Numbered from the stretch's first letter, positions 31,780 through 37,363 are shown. The stretch: 37,363 nt of DNA from a virus (IMGVR_UViG_3300030708_003795:1-37363); one strand, 5' to 3'. Program-made: numbers and translations. Notes: generated by a model not told the origin, from the letters alone.

Positions 31780-32381
31780 TCCTTAAACTCCTCTTCTTCC
31801 TCTTCCTGCTCCTGCTTCTCCACATAGGACAAGCGAGCCTGGTCGGCCTCTTCACGCTCCTGCATGGCCAACTGACGAGCGTCTCGACGATCCTGGAGCA
31901 TTTTCACCAGTTCCTCGTCACTCAGCTCATTCAGATTCTCCTTCTGGGTATGCTCCACCTTGGAAGCCACCTCTTTCGGAAGAATGTCTTTAATGAGGTA
32001 TTTAATCATAAAGCCCAGCACTTCTCGGCCTTCGGGAGTGTCAGGATCGGCACCCTCCACCATTTGAGGAATCTTGTCAAAAAGGCCGGCTTTGGCCAGT
32101 TTGTTGACAAAATCCTTCTTAATTTGCATGGGGTTCATTTTCTCGACCATGTTTTTGCGTTTGGCAAGTCTGGGTCGATCCTGGGTCAGTTTCCACCAAC
32201 CCTGGAATTCCTCGTCGGTGGCCACCGCTCCCATTGCCACTTCATACGGAATCCCGGCCTTATCCGCCGCGTCCACAAAATGCAACCCCTGCTCTATGCC
32301 CTTTTGCATATCGTGCCGGCGCTGCTCACGAATCAAATAAACACCCACTTTTGTCTGGCGTTTACTTCCTACCTTTGGCAT
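31776..32381 (-). CDS. Probable terminase small subunit (start uncertain)
   Basis: ATGA-coupled to TerL; HTH-like AADKAGIPY; L.ELSDEEL motif; acidic tail. Confidence 0.65.
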   Translation of the reverse strand: MPKVGSKRQTKVGVYLIREQRRHDMQKGIEQGLHFVDAADKAGIPYEVAMGAVATDEEFQGWWKLTQDRPRLAKRKNMVEKMNPMQIKKDFVNKLAKAGLFDKIPQMVEGADPDTPEGREVLGFMIKYLIKDILPKEVASKVEHTQKENLNELSDEELVKMLQDRRDARQLAMQEREEADQARLSYVEKQEQEEEEEEFKE

Positions 32382-32444
32382 CTTATGTTGGTGACTCAAG
32401 TTTCCCCCTAGTGCTTCCTTGCACTGTATCAGAAAGGTAAGACC

Positions 32445-32927
32445 TTGACACAAGAACTTTTAGACGCACTCGCCACTCTCAATGAGAACATGGAGAAAAA
32501 CAACCAACTTCTCCGGGGCATCTCCAACCTCATTGAGGAAAACCCAGGTCTCGACAAATTTGCCCAGGAGCTTCACAAACTTTCCACTTCCATTGGGCAA
32601 ATTGGCAAAATAGCCGCTTCTGAAATACAGGGGAAATCTGGAAACACCGACAGCAAGGGCCGCTCGATTGTCAAGCCCCAGTGGGAAAAGTGCGACACCA
32701 AGGGAGACTGGGTTTGCCGGAAACCCGAAAATGCCAAAGAAACCGAATGCAAAAAGTGCGGGAAAAAGATTATTTGGACCGTGACCAAAAACAACAAAAA
32801 AATGCCCATTTCAGAATGCCCCACAAGACCCTCCTGGTGGGTCAGCCATTTCGATTCCTGCAAACCCGACAATCCCTCGCCAGCTCCTGCCGCTAAAAGC
32901 GACCAAGACATGGACTTCCCCTTCTAA
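32445..32927 (+). CDS. Coiled-coil + Zn-binding protein with SSB-like acidic tail (DQDMDFPF)
   Basis: AGAAAGG SD before TTG; CKKCGKKIIW..T...KKMP...SHFDSC. Confidence 0.75.
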   Translation: MTQELLDALATLNENMEKNNQLLRGISNLIEENPGLDKFAQELHKLSTSIGQIGKIAASEIQGKSGNTDSKGRSIVKPQWEKCDTKGDWVCRKPENAKETECKKCGKKIIWTVTKNNKKMPISECPTRPSWWVSHFDSCKPDNPSPAPAAKSDQDMDFPF

Positions 32928-33297
32928 ACGGATTTCTTTTGACAGCCCCCCAGATATGAGGTACATCCCCTCTTGACATAGTGTCAGTACCAAGTTCTGG
33001 GGGGTCTTCGGTACGCTGCGACAAACTCAGAGGCAACTCAGGAGCATAATCGCGGGTCAATTTCTCCTCTTACCCACTCCAGATTAGTGCCATCAGAGAA
33101 ATTTCTCTCTGGGGGGGTAAGGGGGGGTTTTGACCTGCTCCAAATCTAGGAAACAATCTAGGAGCATTTAGTTACTAATAACTCCTATATTTGACCTGGA
33201 TTCCTAAATTTCGATCTCTCTCCAGGGCCAGCAAGACTAGTGTTTCGCCTTTCTCACTTTTCCTTGTTGGCCCTATCTACATACAAAAAGAGGCAAA

Positions 33298-33579
33298 TTG
33301 AGAAGACCATTTGTGATTAAGCTATTTTTGGAAGAAAGTAACCCAGAAGCAATTCTTCTCGATAATCTTGACCAGGCTCTTATTGGACACTGCAAAATCA
33401 AACAAACTGACAGCCAGGTAGCTGTTTATTCAGAAACGAAGATTCTTCAAACTCTCATGAAGAATAATAGCTGGGGGTATAATCAAGCCCTAAACTATTT
33501 CTACCAGAATGTCGATTGTGCCTATATGGGGCCAAATACCCCTATAATCGTTAGTGATCTGCCCTCACACACGGCGTAA
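33298..33579 (+). CDS. Conserved phage protein of unknown function
   Basis: LD.ALIG...VAVYS..KI...L.......A..YF..N...AYMG..TP pattern recalled from marine phages. Confidence 0.75.
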   Translation: MRRPFVIKLFLEESNPEAILLDNLDQALIGHCKIKQTDSQVAVYSETKILQTLMKNNSWGYNQALNYFYQNVDCAYMGPNTPIIVSDLPSHTA

Positions 33580-34058
33580 TTGTGGAGAGAGTATATATAT
33601 ATGCACACGCAGCGCCGCGCTGGGGGGCCCCACCCCACCACCCCTCGGCCATGTTCCGATAACTGCTCTTATGGGATGTGGATTATTGGACCATTGTCGG
33701 CCTATCATGCCAAATTCGGGCAGTATTCGCCAAAATACGCAAGATCGACCAAATACTGCTTTTGTTCTCCCCAGGTTTTCGGTCCGATGTCCTGGCGAGC
33801 CGGTCACAAAACCGGTCAGGGTCCGATTTCTCCCGGTTCCGCAGACCACAAGACATCCACAAACTTTCCTCCAATTGAGAATCTCCGCTAGAAATCTCCA
33901 AAATCTAAAAATGAGACCATCGATGATGCAAAATCCCAAAAATCGATTCTAAGGGATCCAAAAAACCTGTGACTGATTACATAGGGTGGGATCTGAAAAC
34001 GTCACACAATTGAAATACGGGATTCGATTTTTTGCCGATTCTCTGAAATTTGGCCAAA

Positions 34059-34125
34059 TGATAGGAAAATGATAGAAAGCTGCGGTGATAGTTAGTCCAG
34101 GTGATAGATGAAAAAATTATGATAG
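34059..34125 (+). repeat. Five TGATAG motifs upstream of the early promoter
   Basis: TGATAG at 34059, 34070, 34086, 34102, 34120. Confidence 0.75.
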
Positions 34126-34147
34126 ATTTGCCGGATACTATAGATCC

Positions 34148-34177
34148 CTGACGTTTTACGGCCATTTGTGCTAAAAT
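34148..34177 (+). promoter_or_regulatory. Putative sigma70-type early promoter
   Basis: CTGACG-18 nt-TAAAAT with extended -10 TGn, ~45 nt before first early ATG. Confidence 0.55.
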
Positions 34178-34222
34178 ACGGGTGTCCGGATCGGTTTCCG
34201 GGCTAGAAATTGGAGAGAGAAA

Positions 34223-34669
34223 ATGGCCAAGTTGAATGAAGTTGAGACTTTGAAGGGGCTTCGGGTGAAGTTGAATCAGGTCCTGGCTGAGGTTTTGGAG
34301 TCCGAAGGCCTGACTGCGACCATCGGAAATATGAATTATGAACGTGATGGTTCGCAAGTCCGGATGAAGTTGACCATCGACACTGTCGAATCGGCATCGA
34401 TGTGTGAGTTTGCTAAACCACTCCAAAATGAGAACATCACCGGCTACCTGTTTTCCGAAAAGAAGAAATTCATCATTACCAAGGATCACATCGGAAAACC
34501 TGTAACCATCAATGGCAAGGAAATGCAGTTTCTCGGATACAAGCCAAAAGGTCGCAAAAAAAATTGGGCCTGTGGAGTTCCCGGTGAAGATGGGCATTTT
34601 GCATTGGATGCGGAATCTCTTGTTTACGTTTCCGCTGATTTCGGATGGCTGAAACTCGAAGATCTGTAA
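34223..34669 (+). CDS. Hypothetical early protein (148 aa)
   Basis: GGAGAGAGA SD; first gene after the long non-coding region. Confidence 0.85.
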   Translation: MAKLNEVETLKGLRVKLNQVLAEVLESEGLTATIGNMNYERDGSQVRMKLTIDTVESASMCEFAKPLQNENITGYLFSEKKKFIITKDHIGKPVTINGKEMQFLGYKPKGRKKNWACGVPGEDGHFALDAESLVYVSADFGWLKLEDL

Positions 34670-34734
34670 TCCGAAACTCGGGGATTTCCCCGAGTCATCG
34701 CATCGTGGCGGATGCGGTCTGAAGATGGAGCCAT
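34670..34734 (+). ncRNA. Type II hammerhead ribozyme 1 (predicted cleavage after GUC at 34696)
   Basis: UCC-GAAA; stem III ACUCGGGG/CCCCGAGU; C17; stem I AUCGCAUC/GAUGCGGU with loop GUGGCG; CUGAAGA-U-GGA; GCCAU pseudoknot. Confidence 0.9.
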
Positions 34735-34752
34735 ACAGATTGGAGAGAGTCG

Positions 34753-34941
34753 ATGCGTGGCTATATCTCTTGCGACTTTGGTCCTGGTGAAAAGTTTCTC
34801 TATTGTGAGGAGTGCGGACGCGAAGCCTTGCATTGGCATGGTTTGGAAATTGACGGTCGCAATGTTTGTGAAGTTTCCGAAAACGATTTAGACGACGATG
34901 CAAAGTGTGATTGTTGTTTAATCAAGAAAAACGAAGGGTAA
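34753..34941 (+). CDS. Small Cys-rich (Zn-finger-like) protein
   Basis: GGAGAGAG SD; CEEC...CDCC. Confidence 0.75.
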   Translation: MRGYISCDFGPGEKFLYCEECGREALHWHGLEIDGRNVCEVSENDLDDDAKCDCCLIKKNEG

Positions 34942-34945
34942 AAAA

Positions 34946-35275
34946 ATGAAACCGATGACTCAAGAACAAATGGATTTTTGCACTGCAATTGAGGATTACA
35001 AAAAAGAAAAAGACAAACTGTTTTTGTCGTGGTGCGAGGTGCTGCAGATCGTAAAAGATTTAGGTTACACCCGTCAAACCTCATATGACATCTATGAAAC
35101 TAGGGCACGGGAAATTATTGAGCAGATGGAAACCGATCCTGATCTGATGGATAACTGGCATCAGGATTTGGAAGATGAAGCACAAGGGGATTATTCGCGG
35201 GGTGATACCGATGCATATTTTTATTGTGAAAAGGTGAAATCAATAGTCTGGAAACTTTTGGAAGGGAAAGAATAA
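34946..35275 (+). CDS. Early protein with N-terminal Planctomycetota-like domain
   Basis: MT.EQ.DF..AI.DYK.....LF.SW.EVL.IVK.LGY. Confidence 0.75.
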   Translation: MKPMTQEQMDFCTAIEDYKKEKDKLFLSWCEVLQIVKDLGYTRQTSYDIYETRAREIIEQMETDPDLMDNWHQDLEDEAQGDYSRGDTDAYFYCEKVKSIVWKLLEGKE

Positions 35276-35433
35276 TGTCTAGATTTTTCGAAATCCTGTT
35301 TTTGATTGTGTATTTGCCATTCATGTTCATCGGCATCTGGATCCACGAATTACGGGGATTGTGGGATAAAGAACCGGGAATGCACATCGAGCCGGAATAC
35401 ACTGAACCTGAGAGGAGAGGAAAAGATGAATAG
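35275..35433 (+). CDS. Small membrane protein MSRFFEILFLIVYLPFMFIGIWIHELRG... (52 aa; not in ORF track)
   Basis: Translated by hand; TAATG coupling; N-terminal TM helix. Confidence 0.65.
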   Translation: MSRFFEILFLIVYLPFMFIGIWIHELRGLWDKEPGMHIEPEYTEPERRGKDE

Positions 35434-35926
35434 GAAAACCGCAAACATCGAGAAAGTACTGAATCATCTTCGGAACGGGAACCGGGCCAGGGTTGCCGAT
35501 TGGGATGAAAAGGAATTTATTCAGTACGACCCGACAAAGGGAATCGTCACGGAAACCGATGAAGAATGCAACGGGATGGTTTTTATCGTCAACTCTGACT
35601 GGGAACTGATTCCTCCAAGAGATGAAGAAAAGGAATTTCTCGTTTTCTCGACGCGGATCCGTCGAAATACTAACGAGTCCGATCATGAAGAAACCGAGTG
35701 TGTGGATACTCCAGAAAAGCAGACCATTAAAGAAATTCTTGAGTGGTGGAATGAATCAGACCTGGGTCGCAAAAATAAAGATGATATCGATCTGGAGGAA
35801 AAACTTTATAAGGCCGATGCCGGATCGACCATCACCGTTGAATCTGGTGCGAGTGGTGGATGGGATTGGTGGCTGAACAATTTTGTTTGTCTCGACGGAC
35901 AAGATGATTGGTGGATCGAGTACTAA
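35426..35926 (+). CDS. Acidic early protein (166 aa); N-terminus weakly DUF2829/Tad2-like
   Basis: GAGGAGAGG SD before ATG 35426; IEKVL..LRNG.RAR...W...DWEL. Confidence 0.75.
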   Translation: MNRKTANIEKVLNHLRNGNRARVADWDEKEFIQYDPTKGIVTETDEECNGMVFIVNSDWELIPPRDEEKEFLVFSTRIRRNTNESDHEETECVDTPEKQTIKEILEWWNESDLGRKNKDDIDLEEKLYKADAGSTITVESGASGGWDWWLNNFVCLDGQDDWWIEY

Positions 35927-35989
35927 ACCGAAACCGGGAATTTTCCCGGTCGGGTGATCGTGGCGGATCACTCCTGATGATGGTAGCCA
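35927..35989 (+). ncRNA. Type II hammerhead ribozyme 2 (predicted cleavage after GUC at 35951)
   Basis: ACC-GAAA; stem III ACCGGGA/UCCCGGU; C17; stem I GGGUGAUC/GAUCACUC with loop GUGGCG; CUGAUGA-U-GGU; GCCA pseudoknot. Confidence 0.92.
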
Positions 35990-36067
35990 GTGATAGACCA
36001 AGCTTTATGATAGGGAGAGAGAGAAAATGATAGACGATCAAGTTACTAACGATGGGAGAGAGTAAAG

Positions 36068-36943
36068 ATGGGCAAATCCTACCCAATCGGAAACCCCAGA
36101 GAGATTCGCAAGTTGTGCGGATTGCATTCTGGGAAATCCCGTGCAGACCTGGGGAGAGAAATAAAAGAAAATTGGAGCCGTATACAGGTTCGGGCAATGG
36201 CATCCGGTTTTAAAAACTGGATTCCCACCTTGCCAAATAGTCTGGAGATTCTGGGAACATCAACCAAGGTAGAAAAATCGCGGAAACTGAAAACGAAAAC
36301 GAAAATCCAGTATCTCAACCCAGGCCGACAGTCTGGGATCGAATTGTGCGGTTTCAGATGTTCAGGTTGCACAGGTGGATGTCTAGGCAATACCGCATCG
36401 AGACTCCGGATGTTTTCAGGCAAGAATTCCAAAACTTGGAAAACGATGCTACTGATCGGGGATCCCGTCCGGTATTTTTCCCTTTTGCAAATCGAAATTG
36501 ATTCCCACATCCGGAGTTGCCATCGGGATGGGATTGCTCCATCTCTCAGGTTGGATGGTTCCTCCGACACGGGGATGGCGGATGCATTATCCGAAATCTT
36601 CCCCGATTGCATTTTTTACGATTACACAAAATCCCGATTTCGGATGAATCGATTTCTGGACGGCAGCTTTTCCGACAATCGGCATCTCACGTTTTCCCGA
36701 TCCTCCAAAAATCACGATGCGAGTTTGGATATTTTGAATCGTGGCGGATCGGTTGCGGTTCCGGTTCTTCAGGACAAATCAGACTGGCCATCAGAGTGGC
36801 AAGGATTTCCGGTCTATGATGCGACCGAAACCGATGCAAGATTCTGGGATTCTCCCGGTTGGCAATTTCTCACTTGGGTTGGCCCGAAATCAGACCATGC
36901 CGAAAAATCGGGGTTCTTGGTAAACCTGGGGGAATCCCGATGA
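36068..36943 (+). CDS. Gp88-family protein (Cys cluster, radical-SAM-like)
   Basis: LC....SGC...CL, RLDGSSD, FYDYTK, HLTFSRS, D.T.TD.RF.D motifs. Confidence 0.8.
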   Translation: MGKSYPIGNPREIRKLCGLHSGKSRADLGREIKENWSRIQVRAMASGFKNWIPTLPNSLEILGTSTKVEKSRKLKTKTKIQYLNPGRQSGIELCGFRCSGCTGGCLGNTASRLRMFSGKNSKTWKTMLLIGDPVRYFSLLQIEIDSHIRSCHRDGIAPSLRLDGSSDTGMADALSEIFPDCIFYDYTKSRFRMNRFLDGSFSDNRHLTFSRSSKNHDASLDILNRGGSVAVPVLQDKSDWPSEWQGFPVYDATETDARFWDSPGWQFLTWVGPKSDHAEKSGFLVNLGESR

Positions 36944-37011
36944 TCGAAATTTGCATCCTGATCATCGTTATTTGGTTCCTGATTATTTCCAAGGATCGGA
37001 AAATACGATGA
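36940..37011 (+). CDS. 23-aa hydrophobic peptide MIEICILIIVIWFLIISKDRKIR
   Basis: ATGA overlap with Gp88-like stop, GGGGG upstream; synonymous-only differences from the copy at 1-68. Confidence 0.7.
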   Translation: MIEICILIIVIWFLIISKDRKIR

Positions 37012-37017
37012 CTGTTT

Positions 37018-37070
37018 GGGGAGTTGGCCAGTTGGTCGGCTCCCCCCATTTTCCGCGTCGCGACGCGGAA
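37018..37070 (+). other. GC-rich hairpin followed by a perfect 20-bp palindrome
   Basis: GGGGAGUUGGCC/GGUCGGCUCCCC stem (G-U pairs favour + strand); TTCCGCGTCGCGACGCGGAA at 37051-37070. Confidence 0.75.
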
Positions 37071-37085
37071 TCCGGACCTGGCAGC

Positions 37086-37126
37086 CACAGATACCACAGA
37101 AAACACAGAGAACACAGAAACCACAG
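37086..37126 (+). repeat. Tandem array of 5 CACAG motifs with 9-nt period (allele of 195-235)
   Basis: CACAG at 37086, 37095, 37104, 37113, 37122. Confidence 0.9.
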
Positions 37127-37146
37127 TAGAAAGAAAGGTACTCCCC

Positions 37147-37363
37147 ATGGAAATTTACAACGATGCCGATATCGAATCGAGGAACGCAGAAAACTTTGCA
37201 AACTCGATTCCCGAACCGGAGGAAACAAAAAAGATGCATCCCCTGGAAGCTCTCAATTTAGATGGCTATTGGTACGGTGATATAAAAACCGACATCGAAA
37301 AACGGGATGGAATTTGGTTTGTTGCAGGAACAACCCATCGAATCGGCAAACCTGGATCGCAAG
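37147..37363 (+). CDS. 3'-truncated allele of the 256-495 gene
   Basis: MEIYNDADIESRNAENFANSIPEPEETKKM...; 4 amino-acid changes and about 9 synonymous changes versus the left copy. Confidence 0.8.
   Translation, partial: MEIYNDADIESRNAENFANSIPEPEETKKMHPLEALNLDGYWYGDIKTDIEKRDGIWFVAGTTHRIGKPGSQ

Follow-up and report, generated by a model that had tools for sequence, protein, structure and literature searches.

Introduction

Cleavage by a hammerhead ribozyme leaves a 5'-OH on the downstream piece and a 2',3'-cyclic phosphate on the upstream piece. In retrozymes and viroid-like circular RNAs, two tandem hammerheads release a unit with ligatable ends. T7 RNase III sites also yield a fixed, hairpin-bearing 5' end, with a requirement for a host enzyme and with other end chemistry.

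Type II hammerheads, their pseudoknot, their clusters flanking prophage genes and the hypothesis that they process transcripts were described by Perreault 2011 (PMC3088659). Cleavage of three arrays is reported there: tandem type II arrays cut 2-kb transcripts in vitro, and cleavage by one array was also seen in E. coli. In Desulfovibrio vulgaris cells, type II hammerheads near phage-like genes cleave, one locus being inconclusive by read ends (PMC8782182). RiboJ, which cuts upstream of a ribosome-binding site and leaves a fixed hairpin-bearing 5' end, as we propose below, raises mRNA about twofold and protein two- to tenfold; its stabilising mechanism has the status of a proposal, and it is synthetic with an added hairpin, unlike the elements studied here (PMC6206723). 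The biological role of bacterial and phage hammerheads is still called open (PMC6765202), so that an earlier note on the present DNA was fair in describing these roles as largely unknown.

Here we analyse the 37,363-base record of a marine phage (the window, that is, the whole stretch of DNA under study; CheckV completeness 100), in which two hammerheads, HH1 and HH2, flank a short gene block (Table 1). Like the RF02276 type II hammerheads (PMC3088659), they have the same topology and core, a short stem II and a 4-bp pseudoknot, UGGC/GCCA. They differ from typical members in stems of lower G+C, in a 3-bp stem II starting C-G, C-G, and in an extra U. The two copies are co-oriented and intergenic, like the tandem, same-strand, intergenic copies of the prophage clusters of Clostridium scindens, Azorhizobium caulinodans and Agrobacterium tumefaciens (PMC3088659); D. 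vulgaris loci 2 and 3 are of the same tandem kind (PMC8782182). With both, the phage shares flanked genes that are not constant and a proposed processing of polycistronic RNA. The Agrobacterium array flanks the anti-restriction gene ardA (PMC3088659), whereas the phage block has a domain of predicted Tad2 fold instead. In contrast to the prophage clusters, the phage is a free marine genome of podovirus type with four genes between the copies.

Two other comparisons show less likeness. Retrozyme-type elements mostly carry type I or type III motifs (PMC13725137), as opposed to type II here, and long terminal repeats, a unit size and a reverse transcriptase are all absent from the phage pair; similarity between its copies is confined to the 65-nt motif, and self-blastn showed no repeat at this place. 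The “PK hammerhead” of PDB 8YDC (PMC11300833) also combines a hammerhead core with a pseudoknot, but there the pseudoknot replaces helix II, whereas HH1 and HH2 keep helix II and make their contact between loop I and the tail, which is a different architecture. Overall, HH1/HH2 are one clean example of a known, common arrangement described in 2011.

Results

Two complete type II hammerheads lie at gene junctions

Both elements match Rfam Hammerhead_II (RF02276; gathering score 37) over model positions 1-66 of 66, HH1 with 49.4 bits (34669-34736, E 2.3e-07) and HH2 with 50.5 bits (35926-35992, E 1.2e-07), and they are the only two gathering-level Rfam matches in the record. An independent type II descriptor scan of both strands returned exactly the same two; its control, 20 Markov-simulated windows, gave one loose match and no strict one. 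No further ribozyme was found at E up to 10 in 32000-37363, and a custom covariance model gave, in the rest of the genome, one 16-bit match only, on the antisense strand of the portal gene. A match of a three-type descriptor at 33466 on the minus strand was weak, with a 1-bp stem II, and was rejected.

All the required core residues (C3 U4 G5 A6 N7 G8 A9, G12 A13 A14, A15.1-U16.1, H17) are present in both copies. Loops close both stem I and stem III, and stem II is open, as in type II. Stem III has 8-9 bp in HH1 and 7-8 bp in HH2, with 8 bp in stem I and 3 bp in stem II of each copy, and every stem pair is Watson-Crick or G-U. The 4-bp pseudoknot joins UGGC of loop I to GCCA of the tail behind stem II, which follows directly in HH1 and after one A in HH2. 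An extra residue between A9 and G10.1, as found here, is a tolerated natural variant, and U at this place is compatible with fast cleavage (PMC3705267). The two copies are identical in 48 of 65 columns, with a longest identical run of 12 nt; in five of the eight stem I pairs and in the outer pair of stem II, both bases differ between the copies.

These results agree with most of what the earlier note had read from this DNA. The two type II hammerheads are real: both pass the Rfam search that it proposed, and the GUGGCG loop, the GCCA tail, the 3-bp stem II, the extra U and the stems that differ and yet stay paired are all there in both copies. The limits given for HH2 (35927-35989) stand, whereas HH1 does not end at 34734, its tail ending at 34733. 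As described, each element starts directly after a TAA stop (34667-69 and 35924-26), which abuts stem II, and the two predicted cuts, 1255 nt apart, enclose four ORFs, each preceded by a purine-rich leader. The claim that the Shine-Dalgarno of the next gene follows holds for HH1, where the tail lies 20 nt before the next start. For HH2 (38 nt), the first Shine-Dalgarno serves a mini-ORF and the GP88-like gene uses the second.

Table 1 Coordinates of the features discussed (positions of the window unless a relative is named)
Feature	Position	Strand	Description	Evidence
Candidate early promoter	34148..34177	+	CTGACG-18-TG-TAAAAT	46 nt upstream of first gene
First gene of block	34223..34669	+	148 aa, no family, TAA abuts HH1	
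HH1	34670..34733	+	Type II hammerhead: stem II 5' strand 34670-72, GAAA 34673-76, stem III, GUC, predicted cut 34696/34697, stem I 34697-34718 with loop GUGGCG, core CUGAAGA 34719-25, extra U 34726, stem II 3' strand 34727-29, pseudoknot tail GCCA 34730-33	Rfam, descriptor scan, pair list
Predicted released RNA	34697..35951	+	1255 nt, from HH1 stem I hairpin to HH2 stem III hairpin plus C	Sequence and folds
Bracketed gene 1	34753..34941	+	62 aa, Cys-rich, no family	
Bracketed gene 2	34946..35275	+	109 aa, no family	
Bracketed gene 3	35275..35433	+	52 aa, hydrophobic N-terminus, no family	
Bracketed gene 4	35426..35926	+	166 aa, residues 5-63 predicted Tad2/AcrIIA7-like fold, TAA abuts HH2	
HH2	35927..35989	+	Type II hammerhead: stem II 5' strand 35927-29, GAAA 35930-33, stem III, GUC, predicted cut 35951/35952, stem I 35952-35973 with loop GUGGCG, core CUGAUGA 35974-80, extra U 35981, stem II 3' strand 35982-84, A, tail GCCA 35986-89	Rfam, descriptor scan, pair list; identical in another study's run
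Mini-ORF	36027..36065	+	12 codons, own Shine-Dalgarno, contains next gene's Shine-Dalgarno	
GP88-like gene	36068..36943	+	Conserved boundary of variable slot in relatives	PF17338, E 1.4e-21
RadC-like JAB gene in relatives	L127:7400-7855, L132:7447-7884, L133:7441-7875	-		PF04002, E 2e-33 (L127)

Minimum-energy folds computed without the pseudoknot differ from the active fold, HH2 being the worst case, and an active-like fold costs 2.2 (HH1) and 4.9 (HH2) kcal/mol, with a family median of 5.0. Folds of the predicted products keep the terminal hairpins. Stem III terminates both 5' products, and stem I of the 3' products has a mean pair probability of 0.82 (HH1) and 0.66 (HH2). The first base of the 3' products pairs with a probability of only 0.28 and 0.34, so that the 5' cap frays.

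The ribozymes sit in a divergent plus-strand block of a closed genome

The runs that hold the record are mostly labelled marine metagenome; among 12 such runs none is listed as RNA, which weighs neither for nor against expression. A late block of podovirus type on the minus strand encodes terminase, head-tail adaptor, major head, tail and internal virion proteins. The divergent plus-strand block begins with gene 34223, includes the GP88-like gene and continues over the contig ends as far as RecE- and RecT-like genes, and from this layout we infer that it is the early operon. The contig ends (1-472 and 36944-37363) overlap with 90-96% identity as two haplotypes of one region, each of the runs X1 and X4 containing both. 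This means that the genome closes on itself and that the phage population is mixed in this region. Both ribozyme copies are also found in contig CEOG01003962.1, with 1 mismatch in 4510 nt and possibly from the same source. In addition, another study's marine run of 2016 yielded a contig that spans 35830-35994, and with it the whole of HH2, at 0 differences. The ribozyme-bearing sequence is therefore no assembly artefact. The pattern of the candidate promoter occurs at chance level (7 sites against 6.0 expected), its position being the sole argument for it. No terminator-like site was found on the plus strand from this candidate until 36455.

The pair lies inside the range of its family

The exact pattern with the same loop was found in 123 stretches in 44 of the 64 parts of IMG/VR (about 180 estimated overall) and in 87 stretches of GTDB genomes, 55 of 80 among the GTDB matches listed carrying Desulfovibrio-like or other deltaproteobacterial names. 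The exact stem II plus U of HH1 and HH2 was seen in no other IMG/VR stretch by pattern search. Among 121 distinct viral copies, the base added after A9 is U in 11 and C in 1, and stem II has 2 bp in 65, 3 bp in 35 and more in 21. A stop codon lies within 10 nt upstream of 95 of these copies, as compared to 8.6% of random places, and a Shine-Dalgarno-like site with a start lies within 40 nt downstream of 96, as compared to 17% (2400 random places; upstream stops counted for ORFs of 40 or more codons). The stop-to-start placement of the viral copies is under selection.

Covariation was scored after aligning HH1 and HH2 with 68 of the 121 viral copies; in this alignment, 97.7% of 1466 cells are paired and 13 of 21 pairs are changed on both sides. 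The score, strong in stems I and III, is 0.511, versus 0.132 for shuffled and at most 0.109 for slid alignments. The pseudoknot is paired in 95% of cells, but the search pattern fixed the loop, so this figure is not evidence of conservation; one copy found by the covariance model (L075:2115-2183) has a compensated pseudoknot, UGUCC/GGACA. With the same kind of model, 17 of 78 viral loci contain two or three co-oriented copies within 4 kb (2 overlapping duplicates were left out, and L004 and L045 look like one element), spaced by 92 to 2090 nt over 21 intervals. Two or more copies within 3 kb are present in 14 of 78 bacterial loci, one of which has eight. The HH1/HH2 pair lies inside this range, and its extra U, pseudoknot and stop-to-start placement are ordinary for the family.

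Two unusual arrangements were seen in the survey. On a contig of Streptomyces sp. NPDC048057 (L224, 667-4602, minus strand), a stretch of under 4 kb contains eight hammerhead-like matches, of which seven are divergent (33-42 bits). At L004:3892-4054 and L045:3997-4159, a very short reading frame starts between a type II pair about 92-95 nt apart.

Related phages fill the same slot without ribozymes

A related terminase was found in 16 IMG/VR loci and 17 metagenome loci. Three of the IMG/VR loci (L127, L132 and L133, about 80% terminase identity) extend across the slot that the homologues of genes 32445 and 36068 delimit. In these, the slot holds a RadC-like JAB gene along with further small ORFs, which vary among the three, none of the phage's five genes (34223 and the four bracketed ones), and no ribozyme by Rfam, descriptor or custom model. 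The custom model gave 0 matches in 26 loci besides the phage itself. Terminase relatives at 91-97% end before the ribozyme block, and between 80% and 100% no relative covering the block was found except the same phage. IMG/VR scans with genes 36068, 35426 and 34223, as single proteins or alignments, gave no loci. The four bracketed genes, compared by tblastn with the fetched loci, matched the same phage only, and 50,697 records of cultured phages gave one 20-base chance match.

Whether ribozymes are present or not, the slot is hypervariable. That three relatives do without them there marks the ribozymes as a lineage-specific add-on that is optional. This comparison is one part of the value of the locus. 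The comparison of gene content that the earlier note had suggested, between ribozymes in relatives, did reveal differing slot genes, but these relatives have no ribozymes.

The bracketed genes include a predicted Tad2-like domain

The last bracketed gene (35426) matches Pfam PF11195 (Tad2-like) weakly, with 19.1 bits against a cut-off of 25 (E 0.002), and one of its 12 small stand-alone relatives passes (P0005, 28.4 bits). Neighbours of the Tad2-like family in the Atlas, at 0.86-0.87, are a lead only, and sequence searches of solved structures with this gene gave no Tad2 match. In the full-length model, residues 1-64 remain under pLDDT 50. A domain model of the first 66 residues, built from nine sequences, has pLDDT 89.9. 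It compares with AcrIIA7 (8kbi) and ModTad2 (9eib) at Z 8.1 and 8.0, the next row being at 5.1, and superposes on them with an rmsd of 2.0-2.1 over 59 residues. With this model, the first 11 Foldseek rows are Tad2 chains, though with weak E values of 0.1-0.46. The domain (35426-35623, plus strand) is shorter than the solved chains (73-104 aa) and has as its fusion partner a 100-aa domain that belongs to no known family. Residues 5-63 are thus predicted to adopt a Tad2/AcrIIA7 fold, which is a statement on fold, not on function; the domain may be considered a candidate sponge for immune signals.

Residues 1-48 of bracketed gene 2 (34946-35089) resemble unnamed clusters, mostly from Planctomycetota, with TM 0.86-0.89 over 46-48 residues; this is a weak hint at the host and a lead only. 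Another protein, P0004, joins the N-terminal modules of bracketed genes 2 and 4 directly, which indicates that the domains of the block shuffle.

The Tad2-fold domain echoes the ardA case, a hint that such ribozymes may mark counter-defence genes, which would be a second value of this locus. A literature search, with subscription journals mostly outside it, found no paper linking hammerheads to anti-defence genes. Between other tandem copies, 14 intervals gave 23 proteins (7 of 21 intervals gave no ORF under the filter): two N6 methylases, three DUF2786/DUF7168, two DUF6874, one HNH, one weak Lar match, one weak AprA match and 13 without family. An anti-defence trend is not clear in this small sample. 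The DUF2786/DUF7168 proteins (L020, L007, L036) and the DUF6874 proteins (L019, L032) recur between tandem hammerheads.

Self-cleavage probably splits the early message into capped pieces

In our reading, which we consider probable, HH1 and HH2 are ordinary pseudoknotted type II motifs at gene junctions that are likely to cut themselves and to split the early message into three hairpin-capped pieces. Docking of stems I and II by the pseudoknot between loop I and the tail would promote fast cleavage after GUC. The pseudoknot is a known accelerator of type II hammerheads (PMC3088659), and given the complete core, this accelerator and a tolerated extra U, cleavage is expected to be fast and constitutive. 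The early message would then be cut soon after transcription, with four small variable genes on the middle piece. Stem II being the open helix, both new ends of each cut would bear a hairpin, stem III at the 3' end of the upstream piece and stem I, with a 5'-OH, at the 5' end of the downstream piece; the type II topology alone would cap both products with their own stems. Hairpin and 5'-OH ends should protect the pieces from 3' exonucleases and from 5'-monophosphate-dependent decay. Each piece would have its own half-life and a fixed 5' leader, independent of the upstream gene, and the ribozymes, working in the manner of RiboJ or T7 RNase III sites, would naturally insulate an early region that is hypervariable. 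Cleavage would not act as a switch, the end hairpins likely tuning stability. For this phage, such processing is suggested by the motif, the pairing, the family match and the placement. The earlier note had proposed a protein-free processing of the polycistronic message; it stands as the best reading, but it is not new, being a published hypothesis (PMC3088659). As a test case for what such hammerheads do for their carriers, this uncultured phage offers no advantage over the loci of the cultured D. vulgaris or A. tumefaciens.

The same cuts could serve to switch off the early genes quickly, if a host RNase J-type 5'-3' exonuclease degrades the 5'-OH pieces. There is a precedent in glmS, where cleavage leads to decay (PMC6765202), and the D. 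vulgaris reads consist mostly of the ribozyme motif alone, which its authors relate to a possible degradation of flanking RNA (PMC8782182). The fraying first bases of the products would also suit such a timer. However, it is hairpins that both new ends carry, and the ribosome-binding site near the tail in 96 of 121 copies fits a product meant for translation; we hold rapid decay to be unlikely. A regulated cleavage, gated by upstream translation or unmasking the downstream ribosome-binding site, is very unlikely. The stop codon abuts stem II, so that a terminating ribosome would cover part of the core, coding bases upstream of HH1 can pair with the 5' strand of the core, and the HH2 Shine-Dalgarno opens after the cut (0.54 to 0.70). 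On the other hand, the HH1 Shine-Dalgarno keeps a constant access (0.74 and 0.74), the tails end 20 and 38 nt ahead of the next starts, and forming the active-like fold costs less behind the real upstream sequence than behind shuffled sequence (2.2 versus 5.2 and 4.9 versus 6.4 kcal/mol). The cost is lower than shuffled in 72 of 120 family copies as well (p 0.019, relatedness ignored). Neither gating by upstream misfolding nor unmasking of the ribosome site is supported by these fold costs and access values.

Two further readings bear on the DNA and on the fate of the released piece. The ribozymes may be passengers on acquired modules, or short homologies by which RecE/RecT exchange cassettes, with cleavage tolerated more than useful. 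The phage does encode RecE- and RecT-like proteins, 48 of 65 columns are identical between HH1 and HH2, the P0004 fusion shows module shuffling, and the slot is hypervariable, with ribozymes absent from relatives at 80% terminase identity. Yet the same relatives vary in the slot without ribozymes, which are therefore not needed for cassette swapping, and exact matches reach no more than 12 nt. Divergence of the stems has been compensated, a sign that selection acts on RNA structure and not on DNA identity. Contigs of 4 runs, 2 of which cover the block fully, showed no joint that removes the block, contigs being prone to drop rare variants. This reading appears decidedly unlikely, and the suggestion in the earlier note that the repeats could serve as recombination points is not supported, given the at most 12 identical bases and the three syntenic relatives with different genes and no ribozyme in this slot. 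The note had also found a circular mRNA conceivable, by RtcB-type ligation; closure of the 1255-nt piece would be the work of a host RtcB-type enzyme or of the reverse ribozyme reaction. A 5'-OH and a 2',3'-cyclic phosphate are the substrate of RtcB and are the predicted ends here, and, brought together, they would form a chimeric hammerhead whose stem II has two C-G pairs. The phage genome (CheckV completeness 100) has no match to the RtcB, RNA ligase and reverse transcriptase families (PF01139, PF09414 or PF00078), so that ligation would need the host. Moreover, the junction of HH2 stem III with stem I, core and tail of HH1 would make a complete hammerhead (stem III probability 0.95 and stem I 0.64 in the circular fold), and the circle should re-cleave at this rebuilt core. 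Both ends are tied up in hairpins, the gain in stability is modest (-350 versus -328 +/- 11 kcal/mol for 8 base-shuffled circles), the tandem spacing over 21 intervals (92 to 2090 nt) reveals no unit size, and Perreault 2011 sought spliced or circular products and detected none in the arrays reported (PMC3088659). Closure of this piece is highly improbable, and circularisation of the released RNA is unlikely and not supported. That a host RtcB-type ligase makes a nuclease-resistant circular four-gene anti-defence mRNA, its last gene encoding a Tad2-fold sponge, is a very long shot. If true, it would be a natural circular mRNA of a DNA phage, with counter-defence proteins supplied through infection; our literature search, with the same restriction to mostly non-subscription journals, found no paper showing a natural circular phage mRNA.

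Further features around the early block

The hexamer TGATAG occurs five times in 67 nt (34059-34125, plus strand), just upstream of the candidate early promoter, and three times directly behind HH2 (35991-36033, plus strand). A cluster of three in 80 nt was seen in 0 of 400 simulated strands, and the cluster is absent from L127, L132 and L133. These sites are possibly operators, which could mean a second control point behind HH2. In the mini-ORF region (36012-36070, plus strand), the stop lies 2 nt before the GP88-like start, an arrangement that resembles a two-cistron leader; the region may be a decayed tandem duplication of a ribosome-binding region. Repeats of 9 nt of the CACAGA type occur in the contig-end region. 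Lastly, genes 32445 and 33298 are separated by a stretch with a 24-bp inverted repeat that has a G-rich arm (33052-33148). Four relatives at 80% terminase identity retain part of this repeat with 92% conservation over 39 nt, and it may be a functional site.
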